DNA of 33,090 nucleotides from a virus (taxonomy: Duplodnaviria > Caudoviricetes), in the IMG/VR virus record IMGVR_UViG_3300012352_000596, positions 1 through 33,090 of that record; one strand, 5' to 3'. This document shows positions 2,578 to 30,240 of this stretch, in pieces. Each line of letters begins with the position of its first letter. Position 1 is the stretch's first letter. The position numbers and the translations under genes were made by a program. The notes under the pieces are model-generated. The model ran no database searches, was not told the origin of the DNA, and saw only the letters and a list, made by a program, of their open reading frames with translations.

Positions 2578-4581
2578 CTATTCCTTAATATTTTTTAATA
2601 TTTCAGCAACTTTCTTCAAAAACATCTCCTCACGACAGAATTGTGCAACTTCTTCAAACCATCCTGATACACTAAATCCATTCAATTCACCCTGTTTTAC
2701 TTTATTCCACACATCGTCATTTTTGACTTTCATTGATACGAACCAAGTTCCTATTGGTAAATCCTCATAACCGTACTTATTAGACTTATCCTGACTATCT
2801 TCTTTAATCCAAGACTCAATCACATATACGTCTTTTACAGCGGTACCATCATGATTTTCGTCATTATTATCAAGATATTTGTTTCTCATATACTTCTCAG
2901 CAATCATCTTGATGGTTTCAGCACTGAAAAATACGTGATAAGGGTTTCCTTGTTTGTCTCTACGATAGATGTGTAAGTCAGGAACCATTGCAGGTCCAAT
3001 CACCACTCTTTTTTCTTCTGAGTCAATTGCAAACTTTTGAAGGGACATATCATTCTTTTCAAATGAATTAACTTTAGATTCAGCCCAACTTAGTGCCGAT
3101 AATCCACCCCAAGAATCATACATAAGTTTCCCACAATTTTCACTATAAGATTTTGAACTTTCCAAATCTACCTTGTGTCTTGATAGGTAACTGTACATAC
3201 GTTGGATTGTCTCCTCAGAAATAGGTTCACCGTTTGCAAGTTGGTTTGCTCTAATTTTTCCAACCTCAGTTCCACAGTCTCCCCAACCATTCTCCTCAAC
3301 CCATTTAAGAACCGCCTTAGCATTATTCTTAACAGAATCAGGATAGTCAGAATAACTTTCCATTTGTTCCTTCTTCTTTTTCTTTTTAATACCTTGGTCA
3401 ACATATGGTGGTAAGTTATTTTCATAACCTAATTCACCTTCGTGATATAGATACTCACTATCTTCTGTATGAACCGCACCTGTCATTAATCTTCCATCTG
3501 CGTCTTTATGTGTAGGACCTTCATATAATTTACCATCTTTGGTATAATGTGGTACACCTACTTCAAACTTATCCGCTCTGATTAATGGTGCATTCTCTTT
3601 AATTGCTTTAATCTCATCAGGATTATTATCTATGTGTCTTTGGATTCCTAATTCTTTTAACTTCTGCCACTTCAATCTTCCTTCAGTAAAGAACACTCTA
3701 TCTCTTGGAATCCCAACCATTTGAGCATCTCTGTACACATCATTACTTTCTGTTCTACGTCTTCTTGTAACGATATATAAGTCATTACCTTCGTTGATTA
3801 GTCGTCTTGCTAAGTCCTTACCTCTTTGAGTAGATAATGTATCATCATAATCAATTGATATTTTAGCAAACTCATCCTTTGACATACCTAAATTGGTCTG
3901 TGTAGATGGTGCTGCTGTACCTTTTGATACTGCTCTTTTAACTACATCTGTAACCGTATCAGGTTGTCCTGATAATGGGTCAGGTAGAATATCATTAGGG
4001 AATCCACCAACCTCTGTTTTACCTCTATTAACTGACGCCTTATTGATGATAGTTGCGTCATTACGATACTTAATTCTACTCCAAATATGACGACAGTTCC
4101 AAGATCCTCTATAAGTTCTTGGTGACTGACCAAAATCATTTACCGCAGCATCAATATCTTCTATACGAAATACTTTATTCTCTCTGATTAATTCTTTACA
4201 GAATGGTCTTGAGGTTTCAATAATTGCTGGTTCACCACTAATCTTTGGATTAAGGATATATTTGTATCTAACCTTATATTCCTTTTCATCACCTGATGAT
4301 GGTGCATTTGGGTCTGTATTAACAAATTCTTCTTTACCATCCAAATAATCAACTGAGTCTACAACCCAACCTTCAGCAAGTAAATCTTCTTCTGATTCAC
4401 CAACTGACATTAGATGTTGAGTATATACTGCATCTTCATCAAAATTGTGTTCTTTAGTTTTGTTAAAAAACATCCAATTAACTTCAATTGCTGGTTCGTC
4501 AACAAGGGAAATACTGTCAATACCAGATATTTCATCATCTTCTTCTATTTTCAGTTCGTAAACTTTGTCTTTTTTAATCAT
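2578..4581 (-). CDS. Multi-domain prohead protease (XkdF/S78-like C-terminal domain) with inserted CRH-motif, HAD-like and other modules
   Basis: C-terminal EKRVVIGPAMVPD...NDENH...VIESW...GTWFVSMKV...VW..VK.GEL.GFSV.G; internal DYDDTL HAD motif; YRGSWNCRHIW motif. Confidence 0.8.
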   Translation of the reverse strand: MIKKDKVYELKIEEDDEISGIDSISLVDEPAIEVNWMFFNKTKEHNFDEDAVYTQHLMSVGESEEDLLAEGWVVDSVDYLDGKEEFVNTDPNAPSSGDEKEYKVRYKYILNPKISGEPAIIETSRPFCKELIRENKVFRIEDIDAAVNDFGQSPRTYRGSWNCRHIWSRIKYRNDATIINKASVNRGKTEVGGFPNDILPDPLSGQPDTVTDVVKRAVSKGTAAPSTQTNLGMSKDEFAKISIDYDDTLSTQRGKDLARRLINEGNDLYIVTRRRRTESNDVYRDAQMVGIPRDRVFFTEGRLKWQKLKELGIQRHIDNNPDEIKAIKENAPLIRADKFEVGVPHYTKDGKLYEGPTHKDADGRLMTGAVHTEDSEYLYHEGELGYENNLPPYVDQGIKKKKKKEQMESYSDYPDSVKNNAKAVLKWVEENGWGDCGTEVGKIRANQLANGEPISEETIQRMYSYLSRHKVDLESSKSYSENCGKLMYDSWGGLSALSWAESKVNSFEKNDMSLQKFAIDSEEKRVVIGPAMVPDLHIYRRDKQGNPYHVFFSAETIKMIAEKYMRNKYLDNNDENHDGTAVKDVYVIESWIKEDSQDKSNKYGYEDLPIGTWFVSMKVKNDDVWNKVKQGELNGFSVSGWFEEVAQFCREEMFLKKVAEILKNIKE

Positions 4582-23421: not shown

Positions 23422-23949
23422 TTATATTTTTTTATATCCGTGAATAACCCCTTGATGTGTAATATCAATATGGTCAAACTTATAATAGTCCATTTCATAA
23501 CCGTTGTTTTCAAATATGTGTTCCATTGAGATAAGACATGCTAGGTTGTGATACTCACACGCTATTTCTTCTATCCCATCAAAGTGATGATACTCAATTG
23601 CATTCATCAATACTTCTGACCCCTCAATATCAATCTTCATTACCTGTGGTTTGTAATAGTCCATGTAGGTAATAAACTTCTCATACCTATCAATCATATC
23701 CATATGACAGATGAAGTGATGTACGTTGTAATTGTGTTTAAACCATTCGTATGATTGTGGGTTACCGTCAATACCAATTACCTTTGATGCCTTACGTTCT
23801 TGTAAGAAATATACAGGTGTTGGTGTAAACTCTGAATTGATTCCACAACCCATATCCAATACAACCTTATCTTTGATGTTTAAAAATCCCCAATGAATGT
23901 CTGGTGATTCTGATGTGATGATTCCTTTTGGTTCCCTAATCTTAGCCAT
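23422..23949 (-). CDS. SAM-dependent methyltransferase, FkbM-like
   Basis: VVLDMGCG motif I, VIGID, MKIDIEGSE and EYH motifs. Confidence 0.75.
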   Translation of the reverse strand: MAKIREPKGIITSESPDIHWGFLNIKDKVVLDMGCGINSEFTPTPVYFLQERKASKVIGIDGNPQSYEWFKHNYNVHHFICHMDMIDRYEKFITYMDYYKPQVMKIDIEGSEVLMNAIEYHHFDGIEEIACEYHNLACLISMEHIFENNGYEMDYYKFDHIDITHQGVIHGYKKI

Positions 23950-24463
23950 TTAAATTATCTAATATATTTGTTTTAACCTCTAATCTTATTTGTTTAATAT
24001 AACGAGAAATTGATGAAATTGGAATCCTTGTTTTTCTTGATACCGCTTTCATAGATGAATTGAGAGTTAGATACATATCCAATAAAGACTTTTTAAAAAA
24101 ATCTAATTCAGCGTAATTCATTTCCAATAGTTGATATATCTCCTCCCTTTCAAATTCTTCCTGTTCATAAGACATATCCCAACAGGAATTAATATCCACA
24201 GTCATTAAAACTCTTTCTCGTTTAATTCTATAATAAAAGGGGGATGTTTTGGAATAATAGTTGATACGCATTATTGCGGTGATGTAGTACTTGATTGAAT
24301 TGTCGTCGTAAGATTTAAGTACTATTTCGTTCTTATCGTATAATTGAAGTATTACTTCGTGTAGTAAGTCCTGTGATAATTGATCGTTCTTGGTTATTTT
24401 CTTTGCGATAGTTAATAATTGATAATAATTTCTCGTTAAAAAAGATTCAACTTCTTTATTCAT
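23942..24463 (-). CDS. ECF-like sigma-70 family factor
   Basis: 173 aa; region-2-like Y.QLL.IA.......SQDLLHEV; region-4 HTH SMKAVSRKTRIPISSISRYIK. Confidence 0.75.
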   Translation of the reverse strand: MNKEVESFLTRNYYQLLTIAKKITKNDQLSQDLLHEVILQLYDKNEIVLKSYDDNSIKYYITAIMRINYYSKTSPFYYRIKRERVLMTVDINSCWDMSYEQEEFEREEIYQLLEMNYAELDFFKKSLLDMYLTLNSSMKAVSRKTRIPISSISRYIKQIRLEVKTNILDNLNG

Positions 24464-24725
24464 TTTGAGTTAGTAAGTTTTTCACATCTGAAAGAACCTG
24501 TACCACTTCGTAATTCTCATCTTCCAAATTAGTTATGATAGAACTTTCAATAATTCCATCCAGTATTTCCATCCTATCTATCTCAGGTTCAATACTTCTA
24601 TCAATAATATGTAACATTGAATCAATTATTGTATTACATAACGATACCTTTTGTTTATCAGTAAACTTAAAATAGTCTATTGGTATCTTTAATTCACCTA
24701 TGTCAACCGATTCATTATTTTCCAT
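24456..24725 (-). CDS. Hypothetical acidic protein with a UVR-like C-terminal motif
   Basis: 89 aa; ends in EDENYEVVQVLSD; overlaps both neighbours. Confidence 0.6.
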   Translation of the reverse strand: MENNESVDIGELKIPIDYFKFTDKQKVSLCNTIIDSMLHIIDRSIEPEIDRMEILDGIIESSIITNLEDENYEVVQVLSDVKNLLTQNE

Positions 24726-25461
24726 TCCTAACTCTTTTTATATAATGACATATGGTTGTCGTACTAACTTTATACTTTTCACTTAATTCAACATAAGAAT
24801 GTCTACCTGAATTGTATAAGTTATATATCTCTTTCCACATTTCATGTGTATAATCTATTTTATTTGAGGCTATATACTTTCTCTTTTTTAGATTTTTAAA
24901 TACCAATTTACCATCAATCAACTCCTTTACACCAGGTTTTAACCATACACCACTATCATCATAAGTATAACCTAATAACTTCATTAATTCAAATGTTTGT
25001 TGTTGCTGGTATATATCCCTGTATGTATTTGGATTTAATGAAACTTTCTCTGAACCACCATTCTGTTCTAATTCTTCCTGTCTTCCTATTCGTTTCCTAT
25101 TGGTCTCTCTTTGATTGCAACATTTGATACAATCAAGGTAACTAGTTTTCTTACTTTTACCATGATGATAATATCCGTCAATTGAATGTTTGTGCTCACC
25201 ACAAGTTCTACATTGTTTGTAGTCAGGATTTGTTGCGAATGGATTCTGTTCCACAGGTTGAGGTTCTAATACCTCTAGTTCTAATTCCTGTTCCACTGGT
25301 TGAGTTATTTCTTTCATTCTGATACTTTCCTTGTATTTCTTTTTTTGTTCCTTAAAACAGGATTTACAATACTTTCTTATTCTATGTTTATTCTGTGGCC
25401 TATGGAAATAAGTTTCATATTGGTCCAGTGGTTTATCAATAGAACATTTGGTACATATCAT
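24715..25461 (-). CDS. Double Zn-finger plus C-terminal HTH DNA-binding protein
   Basis: CTKC..CKSC and CRTC..CIKC pairs; SYVELSEKYKVSTTTICHYIK HTH. Confidence 0.7.
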   Translation of the reverse strand: MICTKCSIDKPLDQYETYFHRPQNKHRIRKYCKSCFKEQKKKYKESIRMKEITQPVEQELELEVLEPQPVEQNPFATNPDYKQCRTCGEHKHSIDGYYHHGKSKKTSYLDCIKCCNQRETNRKRIGRQEELEQNGGSEKVSLNPNTYRDIYQQQQTFELMKLLGYTYDDSGVWLKPGVKELIDGKLVFKNLKKRKYIASNKIDYTHEMWKEIYNLYNSGRHSYVELSEKYKVSTTTICHYIKRVRNGK

Positions 25462-27888: not shown

Positions 27889-28011
27889 GTAGGGACGGAT
27901 ACATTTTTATTCTAAATTTGATATTGCCATTTCATGTAGTCCAATTCGTCCCTACTTTATAATATATAGATAGTGATTTTACTTAAGACCCTGACTTTGT
28001 CGGGGTTTTTT
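27889..28011 (+). ncRNA. Candidate small RNA (~120 nt)
   Basis: Begins 5 nt after the promoter motif; stem GTAGGGACG/CGTCCCTAC with inner TACAT/ATGTA; ends in a terminator; no substantial ORF. Confidence 0.6.
27985..28011 (+). terminator. Intrinsic terminator
   Basis: AAGACCCTGAC-TTT-GTCGGGGTTTTTT. Confidence 0.8.
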
Positions 28012-28064: not shown

Positions 28065-28096
28065 TTTGGTATATAATTTAGAATGTACTAAATTTG
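28065..28096 (+). promoter_or_regulatory. Consensus Bacteroidota sigmaA promoter
   Basis: TTTG (28065-68), N20, TAAATTTG (28089-96): a perfect TTTG/TAnnTTTG match. Confidence 0.75.
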
Positions 28097-28385: not shown

Positions 28386-28874
28386 ATGAAATATTTCAAA
28401 TGGAATCACGACTTGGTTACGGAAATTGCTAAACAGTACCTCAATCAAAAAGAATTTAGAAAGGGTAACATCAGGGCGTTTGAATATTCTAAACGTAATG
28501 GTTTATTAGACGTTTTCTTCCCCGATAGAAAGAAGAATGAAACTGATTGGACAATTGATAAGGTTAAGGAGATTGCGTCCAAATATCGTAGACGTAAGGA
28601 CTTTTGTCAGAATGAGAAAGGTGCTGCTGGTATGGCGTACCGATTCGGTATCATGAATGAACTTTATCCACATAAAGAGTTTAAGGTTCACACACCAACT
28701 GAAGAAGAAATGAATGGACGTACAAAGAGATGTTGTCACTGTAAAAAAGAATTACCTTTAAAATATTTCCACAAGAATAAGGTATTTTGGGATGGTCTCG
28801 CACACAACTGTAAGAACTGTACCAACAACTTTAATAGAGAAAGAATGAGATTAGTTAAAAATAAAATTAAATAA
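28386..28874 (+). CDS. Homing-endonuclease-type repeat plus Zn-finger protein, no nuclease domain seen
   Basis: Two W..D.V.EIA..Y...K.F repeats followed by CCHC...CKNC. Confidence 0.6.
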   Translation: MKYFKWNHDLVTEIAKQYLNQKEFRKGNIRAFEYSKRNGLLDVFFPDRKKNETDWTIDKVKEIASKYRRRKDFCQNEKGAAGMAYRFGIMNELYPHKEFKVHTPTEEEMNGRTKRCCHCKKELPLKYFHKNKVFWDGLAHNCKNCTNNFNRERMRLVKNKIK

Positions 28875-28882
28875 TAAAAGAT

Positions 28883-29272
28883 ATGTCAAACAAACTTGTA
28901 AATTCATTAATTTGGGGATTAGGTAGAGGTATTGGTAATACCGCATCTAAACGTACTACGGAATATATTGGTAAAAAATTATACGACCCAAAGAGTAAGT
29001 TCCGTAAAAAAATTGAACGATTTGAATTAGGTGGTGACTTTAATATTGGTAAGAGAAAGATGTTTACATTAATTGATGGTTTTCATGAAGAATATATTAT
29101 GAACAGAGATTCGTTACCGGTATTTCAAGTTGGTAATTATCAATTAAGTGATATTAAAATGATTGAAACAAAATTACGTATGTTTGAATATCTTATTACA
29201 AATGAGGAATCACAACGACCGCAATATGAAACTGTAGTTAGTTATTGGAATATGGTAAAAAATGAATTATAA
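28883..29272 (+). CDS. Hypothetical protein
   Basis: 129 aa; GLGRGIG segment near the N-terminus; coupled to the next gene. Confidence 0.7.
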   Translation: MSNKLVNSLIWGLGRGIGNTASKRTTEYIGKKLYDPKSKFRKKIERFELGGDFNIGKRKMFTLIDGFHEEYIMNRDSLPVFQVGNYQLSDIKMIETKLRMFEYLITNEESQRPQYETVVSYWNMVKNEL

Positions 29273-30159
29273 TGGAGAGGAGAGATTTTCTTAAAAATAG
29301 TTTATTTAGTTTATTGGGTGTTGCATTAACATCAAACAAGGCATTAGCTTCGGTTGTTGAAACATTAACTCCACAATCACTAAAAGTGATGTTATATCTT
29401 GTACAAACAAATGATGGTCAATGGAAGGTTAAAGCAACAAAATGGATTGATTTTTATCAAAAAAGATTAAAACCTTGTTTAGTTAAACCAGAAACATTTA
29501 AGTTATTAGATATTGTTGATTATGATGTTGCAAATACTCGTAAGATTGAATTATGGAAACAATACAATTGTAGTGGTAGATTAACTAAAATAAAAATTAT
29601 TGAAAATACTATTAATGGTAATAAAGCTATTAATAGTGAAAATTATTTAAATTACATCAAGTCAGAAAAATTTAAATTAAATAATAAGAAACGTTCTATT
29701 GCTGCAGGTAAAGTTAGAGGTAAAACAATATTAGGTAAAAATAATCCTATTCACAAAATCAAAAATAATCCTTTTAAAGACCCTGATTTTATTAAAAGGA
29801 ATAGTAGTAAAAAGAAAGGAAAAAAACTATCTGAAGAAACAAAAAGTAAAATATCAAAATCTCATATAGGAATTATTTCCCCAAATAAAGGAAAAAAGGC
29901 ATCAGAAGAAACTCGTAAAAAATTATCAAAGGCATTAACAGGAAGGATTCCTTGGAATAAAGGAATAATATATGATGATAAAATTAGAAAAAAAATGAGC
30001 GAAATAAGAAGGGGTACACCCCAACCTAAAACTTCTGAAACCAATTCTAAGATGAATAGTTTAAAATTTATTTGTCCACATTGTAATCGTGAAATTGGTG
30101 GACGTGCTAATTTTGTTAGATTCCATAATAATAATTGTAGAAATAAAAATACTGTTTAA
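29272..30159 (+). CDS. Tat-signal-bearing protein with degenerate GIY-YIG-like domain, NUMOD3 repeats and C-terminal Zn finger
   Basis: MERRDFLK, hydrophobic stretch, ALA; GKKLSEETKSKIS / GKKASEETRKKLS repeats; CPHC...H...C. Confidence 0.75.
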   Translation: MERRDFLKNSLFSLLGVALTSNKALASVVETLTPQSLKVMLYLVQTNDGQWKVKATKWIDFYQKRLKPCLVKPETFKLLDIVDYDVANTRKIELWKQYNCSGRLTKIKIIENTINGNKAINSENYLNYIKSEKFKLNNKKRSIAAGKVRGKTILGKNNPIHKIKNNPFKDPDFIKRNSSKKKGKKLSEETKSKISKSHIGIISPNKGKKASEETRKKLSKALTGRIPWNKGIIYDDKIRKKMSEIRRGTPQPKTSETNSKMNSLKFICPHCNREIGGRANFVRFHNNNCRNKNTV

Positions 30160-30185: not shown

Positions 30186-30222
30186 ACAAAACCCCGACCA
30201 TTAATTTGGAAGGGGTTTTTGT
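30186..30222. terminator. Bidirectional terminator between the converging arms
   Basis: AAAACCCC..CCA-loop-TGG..GGGGTTTT. Confidence 0.75.
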
Positions 30223-30240
30223 TTTGTATTTGGAGAGAGG

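Follow-up and report, generated by a model that had tools for sequence, protein, structure and literature searches.

The expected target of homing-endonuclease proteins is DNA in the cytoplasm, and their tails of NUMOD3, zinc-finger or helix-turn-helix (HTH) type normally read specific double-stranded DNA sites in that compartment. According to the parts of the cited papers that were available, the GIY-YIG family is defined by the GIY and YIG motifs, an arginine and a glutamate (PMC1564403), and in the enzyme I-TevI the glutamate E75 is a metal site, the exchange E75A abolishing activity (PMC1952068). The available part of a further source describes SNIPE as an active GIY-YIG nuclease that carries an N-terminal transmembrane anchor and a DUF4041 domain, whose nuclease faces the cytoplasm (PMC13190303). 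Likewise, in the excerpts at hand, HxsA of the HXS system is a periplasmic, positively charged protein that binds DNA and keeps phage DNA from entering (PMC13128918), and the T4 antiholin RI is a periplasmic protein believed to sense superinfecting DNA (PMC8385771). As regards the twin-arginine (Tat) pathway, the consulted excerpts report signals predicted for three haloarchaeal pleomorphic virus VP4-like spikes (PMC3384331) and, for the phages of one Klebsiella study, a SignalP 6 screen with no Tat signals (PMC13412088). Among the literature matches listed (a coverage that leaves most subscription papers outside), these predicted archaeal virus spikes were the only phage-encoded Tat substrates, and no description was found of a phage Tat substrate of the type presented below.

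In this study, an entire virus record of 33,090 bases (the window, i.e. the whole stretch of DNA that was analyzed; estimated completeness 96%) was examined. It encodes portal, terminase, protease and tail proteins as well as a sigma-factor-like protein. Its terminase is nearest to those of Flavobacterium phage 11b and Cellulophaga phage phi10:1 (43-44% identity), and these relatives, together with the promoter motif TTTG-N20-TAnnTTTG, given as the Bacteroidota promoter consensus in the available part of PMC6847099, make a Bacteroidota host likely. TatC was found in the genome of Bacteroides thetaiotaomicron, which served as a control; the accessible part of PMC2668756 contained nothing useful about Tat in Flavobacteria. 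Searches of the 31 larger window ORFs against Pfam and PHROG gave no integrase, DNA polymerase or clear endolysin match.

Several other genes of the window, all on the minus strand, were recorded separately. These are: (i) a third endonuclease-like protein of 248 aa (24715-25461), with two zinc-ribbon stretches resembling HNH/EndoVII proteins and a weak C-terminal HTH match, the PHROG matches shown spanning its first 50 residues only, (ii) the sigma-factor-like gene (23942-24463; phrog_1740, E 9.6e-08), located upstream of the terminase module, and (iii) a 667-aa protein (2578-4581) with a C-terminal XkdF-type protease domain (residues 517-641) and a long N-terminal part without Pfam annotation.

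The locus of interest lies near the end of the window and comprises the following elements:

27985..28009, + strand: terminator-like hairpin closing the previous operon (terminator scan)
28065..28096, + strand: Bacteroidota-type promoter motif TTTG-N20-TAnnTTTG (motif scan), homologous to the stretch before gene A in loci L001 and L006
28141..28383, + strand: 80-aa orphan ORF without a PHROG match; local insertion, absent here in L001 and L006
28386..28874, + strand: 162-aa repeat and zinc-finger protein resembling non-catalytic HNH/EndoVII parts (PHROG); local insertion
28883..29272, + strand: gene A, a 129-aa orphan whose stop overlaps the start of gene B (TAATG)
29272..30159, + strand: gene B, 295 aa, with a Tat-type signal, a GIY-YIG-like domain and a basic NUMOD3/zinc-finger tail
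30188..30226, no strand assigned: inverted repeat AAAACCCC...GGGGTTTT with a T tail, after gene B and facing a convergent structural operon

The conserved unit consists of two genes, A and B, which form a mobile cassette, often with its own promoter and terminator, in unrelated phage backbones. Each of the 10 loci compared, one of them being the window, has a homologue of gene A directly upstream of gene B, ending at most 2 nt from the start of B (in one locus gene A is cut by the contig end). This partner (28883-29272) had been missed by the preliminary description of the locus, which had pointed instead to the second, nuclease-less endonuclease-like gene of the operon (28386-28874). A role for the latter was not supported, as the two closest relatives, L001 and L006, lack this gene in the interval from the homologous promoter to the cassette, and no homologue was found directly before gene A in other loci. 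Since the sequence that immediately precedes gene A in these two loci is the homologue of the window promoter, the 80-aa and 162-aa ORFs represent a local insertion, and the 162-aa gene was rejected as the partner of gene B.

The promoter motif occurs 7 times on the two strands of the window, which, compared with 2.56 per strand in shuffled sequences, is not above chance taken alone. The call is supported by nine related loci, of which 6 carry the same motif within 120 nt upstream of gene A, where the background is 0.05 per 120 nt. As a separate observation, locus L033 (G001:C1:1-20000, + strand) carries 19 such motifs on one strand in 20 kb, compared with 0-5 in other stretches, and is possibly an early region with many short promoter-led genes. 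The inverted repeat at 30188..30226, which was read directly in the sequence and is not in the terminator scan output, is likely a terminator; similar hairpins were seen 3' of gene B in L001, L006, L008, L009 and L010.

Gene A is represented by 49 homologue clusters. Its model (pLDDT 82) is a helical bundle behind a low-confidence, Gly-rich N-terminal helix, predicted to be amphipathic (moment about 0.5). Pfam, PHROG and fold searches gave no known family or fold, the fold search returning generic helical bundles only. None of the 55 gene A members matched a TatA/B or known Tat signal chaperone Pfam family at E <= 1, and there was neither transmembrane-level hydrophobicity nor a hydrophobic segment long enough for a TatA-type anchor; the idea of a TatA-like gene A thus found no support.

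Gene B combines four recognizable parts:

29272..29349, + strand: twin-arginine signal, residues 1-26 (RRDFLK, h-region, Lys23 and A-L-A site; identified by TIGR01409, homologues and pLDDT)
29383..29586, + strand: GIY-YIG-like domain, residues 38-105, predicted nuclease-dead (fold comparison and family alignment)
29818..30000, + strand: NUMOD3 repeats at residues 183, 207 and, weakly, 231 (Pfam PF07460, E 1.3e-15 over 2 stretches; motif scan for residue 231)
30073..30138, + strand: CPHC...H...C finger, residues 268-289 (C268-P-H-C271...H285...C289; read in the sequence)

The N-terminus of gene B runs E-R-R-D-F-L-K; an uncharged run of 14 residues, Lys23 and A24-L-A26 come next, so that the RRxFLK motif, hydrophobic region and A-x-A site were found exactly as previously quoted for ORF 29272-30159. 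The family signal agrees with the definition of Tat signals by an N-terminal Z-R-R-x-hydrophobic-hydrophobic motif, as given in the part of PMC13673990 that was available, the Z position being polar in 56 of 64 family members and Leu in 8. Of the refuting outcomes named earlier, the lack of any Tat prediction did not occur for the N-terminus: the curated model TIGR01409 gave 18.1 bits for the first 40 aa and 17.8 for 43 aa (cut-off 16.7), with 13.1 bits, below the cut-off, for the whole protein. It was returned for 0 of 28 other N-termini of the window, and among the 11 cassette N-termini 3 pass the cut-off and 8 are below it, the model not being listed for 4 of the 11. A loose RR pattern was present in 3 of 358 ORFs from the window and nine stretches of three related phage contigs (two of these contigs having been picked because they bear the cassette), and all 3 are cassette genes.

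A search with residues 1-125 of gene B yielded 26 homologues, all beginning M-x-R-R-x-F-[LV]-K. As this query contained the signal, the search was repeated with the domain alone, using a profile built from 16 of 27 sequences, signal left out, over 1.84 billion representatives. This gave 43 proteins, of which 41 carry an N-terminal RRxF; the remaining two are a 104-aa fragment whose start lies within the h-region and a repetitive protein of 1,297 aa, a false match. A chance RR match or a search bias was therefore rejected, homologues without the RR motif, another refuting outcome named earlier, did not turn up apart from these two, and the earlier claim of a conserved Tat-type signal on a homing-endonuclease-derived protein was supported. 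In the merged family set (n = 64, after dropping the fragments P0094, P0105 and P0113 and the false match P0106), RRxF[LIVF]K is present in every member, with domain identity to the query down to 21%.

Behind the motif, the h-region varies in sequence and keeps its hydrophobic character. An uncharged run of at least 11 residues follows in 64/64 members (at least 13 in 44/64; median best 11-residue hydropathy 1.94), and two h-region types, both uncharged and hydrophobic, can be distinguished. The RR motif had the lowest pN/pS of the regions tested (0.26, vs 0.75 for the h-region; both values uncorrected and saturated), which is the pattern expected of a signal peptide. A small-x-Ala cleavage site is present in 56 of 64 members, a strict A-x-A in 34 and a lipobox Cys in none; RRxFLK is thus better conserved than the cleavage site. 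Given the 34/64 with strict A-x-A, and the lack of any Ala site in 4 of the 33 close sequences, cleavage may not take place in some of the signals.

Other origins of the motif were also considered. Translation from the internal Met40, named earlier as a potential refutation, was rejected, since Met is rare at this position, occurring in 2 of the 33 close sequences and in 6 of the 64 that make up the wide set, and an internal start cannot explain the family. Overlap with gene A was rejected as the cause of RR conservation, given that it amounts to at most 1 nt in 10 B loci and the RR codons vary synonymously. A fusion of the intron type, in frame with the first exon of some exported gene, was rejected too, as no common downstream gene or second exon was seen, gene B being followed across loci by a hairpin or by differing genes. 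The combination of an RR signal with a homing-endonuclease-derived protein is a real and conserved feature, unexplained by known families, and the leader is very probably read by Tat. Since the RR signal was never lost although the family numbers at least 41 clusters (at 50% identity), selection appears to keep a protein of DNA-binding type aimed at Tat.

The cassette occupies differing genome positions, in small phages as well as in contigs of much larger phages (one of 60 kb, 31% complete, and one of 83 kb, 25% complete), and its carriers, small and large, probably infect Bacteroidota. No relatives were found in GTDB genomes or cultured phages, and a single-protein viral scan gave no match; neither a prophage nor a host copy was found, and hence there is no sign of a lysogenic lifestyle. 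Locus L004 matched through the tail only (E 6e-4) and was left out, and L023 and L025 were dismissed as chance pattern matches. A separate 126-aa phage family with a twin-arginine N-terminus was encountered at L019:1501-1881 (+), L021:1501-1881 (+) and L024:1153-1533 (-), its position in L019 and L024 being two genes upstream of one that resembles thymidylate synthase; it has no preceding gene A and no PHROG match, and its TIGR01409 score (13.8 bits) is below the cut-off.

A search with gene A identified three viral loci, two with gene B and the third, L014, with a different cargo. Directly after gene A, L014:3389-4219 (+) encodes a 276-aa protein composed of a Tat-type signal and an unrelated, aromatic-rich 250-aa mature part, which is unmatched by the gene B domain profile and is an orphan except for one homologue (P0077, 87%). 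Its net charge is +4 and it has no DNA-binding match, which indicates that the cassette is not always a DNA trap. The gene A of L014 is a close homologue nested among the B-linked A proteins (clade support 99/98), and therefore the cargo was likely replaced while gene A and the leader stayed, in one event seen once; the arrangement could also result from simple linkage between gene A and B's first codons. At L014:544-2847 and L034, small genes that all start with a similar 'KPFKFF'-like N-terminal motif form a run just upstream of the cassette of the 83-kb contig.

An RR leader thus follows gene A in 11 of 11 loci, despite the change of cargo, and this constancy is what would be seen if RRxFLK were a leader bound by partner A or by another protein, with gene B remaining cytoplasmic. 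The sub-threshold TIGR01409 scores of 8 of the 11 N-termini are in line with such a scheme. It is nevertheless improbable, as all Tat features occur in the proper order, the h-region drifts freely yet remains hydrophobic, and TatC engagement would be expected anyway in a tat+ host.

Another possibility raised by these data is that the signal docks on TatBC without release, so that the translocon would be jammed or phage DNA tethered at the inner membrane. The stronger conservation of RRxFLK relative to the cleavage site fits this model, as does the amphipathic N-terminal helix of gene A, and a long, basic, low-confidence tail bound to DNA may be hard to translocate. Moreover, according to the available part of PMC13412088, tatC mutants resist some Klebsiella phages by an indirect route, which means that blocking Tat could alter receptors. 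Against this, a possible cleavage site is kept in 56/64 members, and jamming alone would need neither a conserved folded domain nor the swapped, folded-looking cargo of L014; docking without release is accordingly considered unlikely.

The domain that follows the signal was modelled with mostly high confidence (AlphaFold2, residues 41-140), residues 1-21 lying apart from it at pLDDT < 50. A VIA fold search over 48,161 solved chains placed I-TevI first (1ln0; Z 4.5, rmsd 3.5, 65 residues aligned), with the GIY-YIG proteins PD-T4-3, UvrC and EndoII at ranks 2, 6 and 34; all these matches have Z < 5, below the trust level of the tool. The viral-library matches of the domain are mostly homing endonucleases where named, and its Atlas neighbours also argue for GIY-YIG, with scores under the bar of that tool. 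The case for a GIY-YIG-like fold is consequently a weak one, resting on the convergence of these model-based comparisons. Foldseek against the PDB gave no match at E <= 0.001 for gene B, a PDB sequence search with the domain profile returned nothing credible, and hhalign comparisons of the 64-row family with I-TevI, SegG and EndoII reached no significance and did not exceed the controls. Pfam gave no GIY-YIG (PF01541) match for gene B, TIGR01453 scored 21.6 against a cut-off of 56, and an intact GIY-YIG was not found in five related phage contigs. Of the GIY-YIG-like part as first described, the loss of YIG was confirmed, and the likeness in fold was seen as a top but sub-threshold I-TevI match that Foldseek did not reproduce.

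The first Tyr, Y42, is kept in 61/64 members. At the YIG counterpart (positions 52-54) the family has K-V-K/R, with Tyr in 2/64 and Gly at position 54 in 0/64. Position 91, which matches E75 of I-TevI in a register taken from the helix pattern and a non-significant hhalign alignment, is R in 35, K in 27 and Q in 2 of the 64 members and thus never acidic. The simplest reading of these substitutions is a disarmed nuclease fold whose catalytic face has turned basic, and gene B has likely lost the ability to cleave. Cutting of incoming DNA, one of the functions first envisaged, is thereby weakened, given that YIG and the predicted metal-binding Glu (in that same register) are replaced across the family.

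The conserved positions also leave some room for a nuclease with a rearranged active site, acting either as a SNIPE-like envelope cutter or as a selfish homing element that spreads the cassette. Besides Y42, the residues T56, D60 (53/64, with Asn in 6), R/K65 and E93 (42/64) are conserved, the cassette sits at differing genome positions, and the register on which I-TevI is aligned is without statistical support. It is, all the same, a doubtful proposal: no member has Gly at position 54, E93 is not invariant, position 91 is never acidic although the corresponding glutamate is essential in I-TevI (PMC1952068, available in part), and an exported homing endonuclease could not home.

The tail of gene B is long and of low model confidence. 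Two clear NUMOD3 repeats and a third, weak one at residue 231 were recovered, in agreement with the initial count, and the terminal finger is likewise present. A similar tail finger occurs in an HNH-type Klebsiella phage homing endonuclease, and the CPHC...H...C pattern in 24 of 64 family members. HTH tails were seen in P0114. The tails differ widely among the family in sequence and module type, and they are always basic, the net charge of the mature proteins ranging from +12 to +47.

These tails are typical cytoplasmic DNA-binding modules and vary like specificity modules, which suggests a further explanation, in which Tat serves as sink and switch. Gene B would be exported and harmless as long as the membrane is energised, and upon a fall of the proton motive force or a block of Tat the precursor would bind cytoplasmic DNA. 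The trigger could be superinfection, the onset of lysis or host stress, and the precursor would then act as a regulator or a poison on phage or host DNA. Such a scheme would account for an export signal on a DNA binder without invoking DNA outside the cytoplasm, and it is compatible with Tat being driven by the ion motive force (PMC13673990, in its available part). No precedent was found in the literature searched, continuous synthesis for disposal would be costly, and the near-neutral cargo of L014, with no DNA-binding match, is left unexplained; the scheme has a low probability.

The explanation placed first, to which a probability of about 0.4 is assigned, is that gene B is a Tat-exported, nuclease-dead trap or sensor for superinfecting phage DNA. 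The protein would likely leave the cell interior folded, through the Tat system of the host, and would bind superinfecting phage DNA in the periplasm without cutting it, thereby blocking or reporting its entry. Genes A and B are adjacent and coupled, often between their own promoter and terminator and in unrelated backbones, and the signal is kept throughout the gene B family. Beyond these observations, Tat may be used because the domain and the zinc finger fold in the cytoplasm, and export would take a strongly basic DNA binder away from the phage's own replicating DNA. The only plausible DNA ligand outside the cytoplasm would then be incoming DNA. The least firm element concerns protein A, which might be a dedicated helper in the cytoplasm or at the membrane surface, i.e. 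a signal chaperone or a shield until export. Periplasmic capture or sensing was put first as incoming DNA is the obvious ligand in that compartment and HxsA and T4 RI are precedents for the role. Tat export, the loss of cleavage, DNA binding and the target of gene B are all deduced here. A PADLOC scan of six proteins gave one match only (E 0.042, on the NUMOD3 part) and no support for a defence role. More tentatively, phages may have converted homing endonucleases into DNA traps exported by Tat; A and the Tat leader would then form a reusable export module with swappable folded payloads, the commonest of which would be a disarmed GIY-YIG protein that bears interchangeable DNA-reading tails and catches or identifies rival genomes in the periplasm.

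Each of the surviving explanations would constitute a new mechanism, be it a domesticated selfish gene that captures rival DNA in the periplasm, the use of Tat as a switch governed by membrane potential or a phage protein directed against the Tat translocon. If the role of gene B is superinfection exclusion, the role itself is known and the machinery alone would be new.

Compared with the GIY-YIG homing endonucleases (I-TevI and the T4 Seg family), gene B shares a putative N-terminal GIY-YIG-like fold (a weak likeness, Z 4.5), exchangeable tails of NUMOD3, zinc-finger or HTH type and a free-standing position in phage genomes; unlike them, it has a Tat-type signal in front, replaced YIG and predicted catalytic Glu residues and an obligate upstream partner. 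With SNIPE, as far as its available description goes, it would share a GIY-YIG domain kept off the chromosome by envelope targeting and acting on phage DNA during injection, whereas in gene B the domain is N-terminal (the reverse order), predicted to be dead and placed behind a Tat signal, and there is no DUF4041 match. The haloarchaeal spikes are likewise predicted Tat substrates, but, according to the excerpt of their source, they are structural proteins of archaeal viruses, not DNA-binding and without a partner gene.

The closest functional parallels are of another kind. In the available account of HXS, a signal-bearing, basic periplasmic DNA binder stops phage DNA from entering and depends on co-encoded cytoplasmic helpers, which is the role proposed for gene B. 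HxsA differs in its HxS repeats and peptidoglycan-binding domain, in its maturation by two radical SAM enzymes and in belonging to a bacterial system; no Pfam or NCBIfam match to such parts was obtained on gene B or its neighbours, and the conserved unit is one of two genes. T4 RI, in the excerpt consulted, resembles the proposed gene B in being a phage-encoded periplasmic protein believed to sense superinfecting phage DNA, and differs in having a cleavable signal capable of exporting the Sec substrate PhoA and in binding the holin T. No search returned a similarity to RI, and among the loci seen there was no tie between the cassette and lysis genes. Judged by the features that define the active GIY-YIG nucleases, SNIPE and HXS, gene B belongs to none of them; its architecture is new, its function is presented here as a ranked hypothesis, and by analogy it may work like HxsA or RI.
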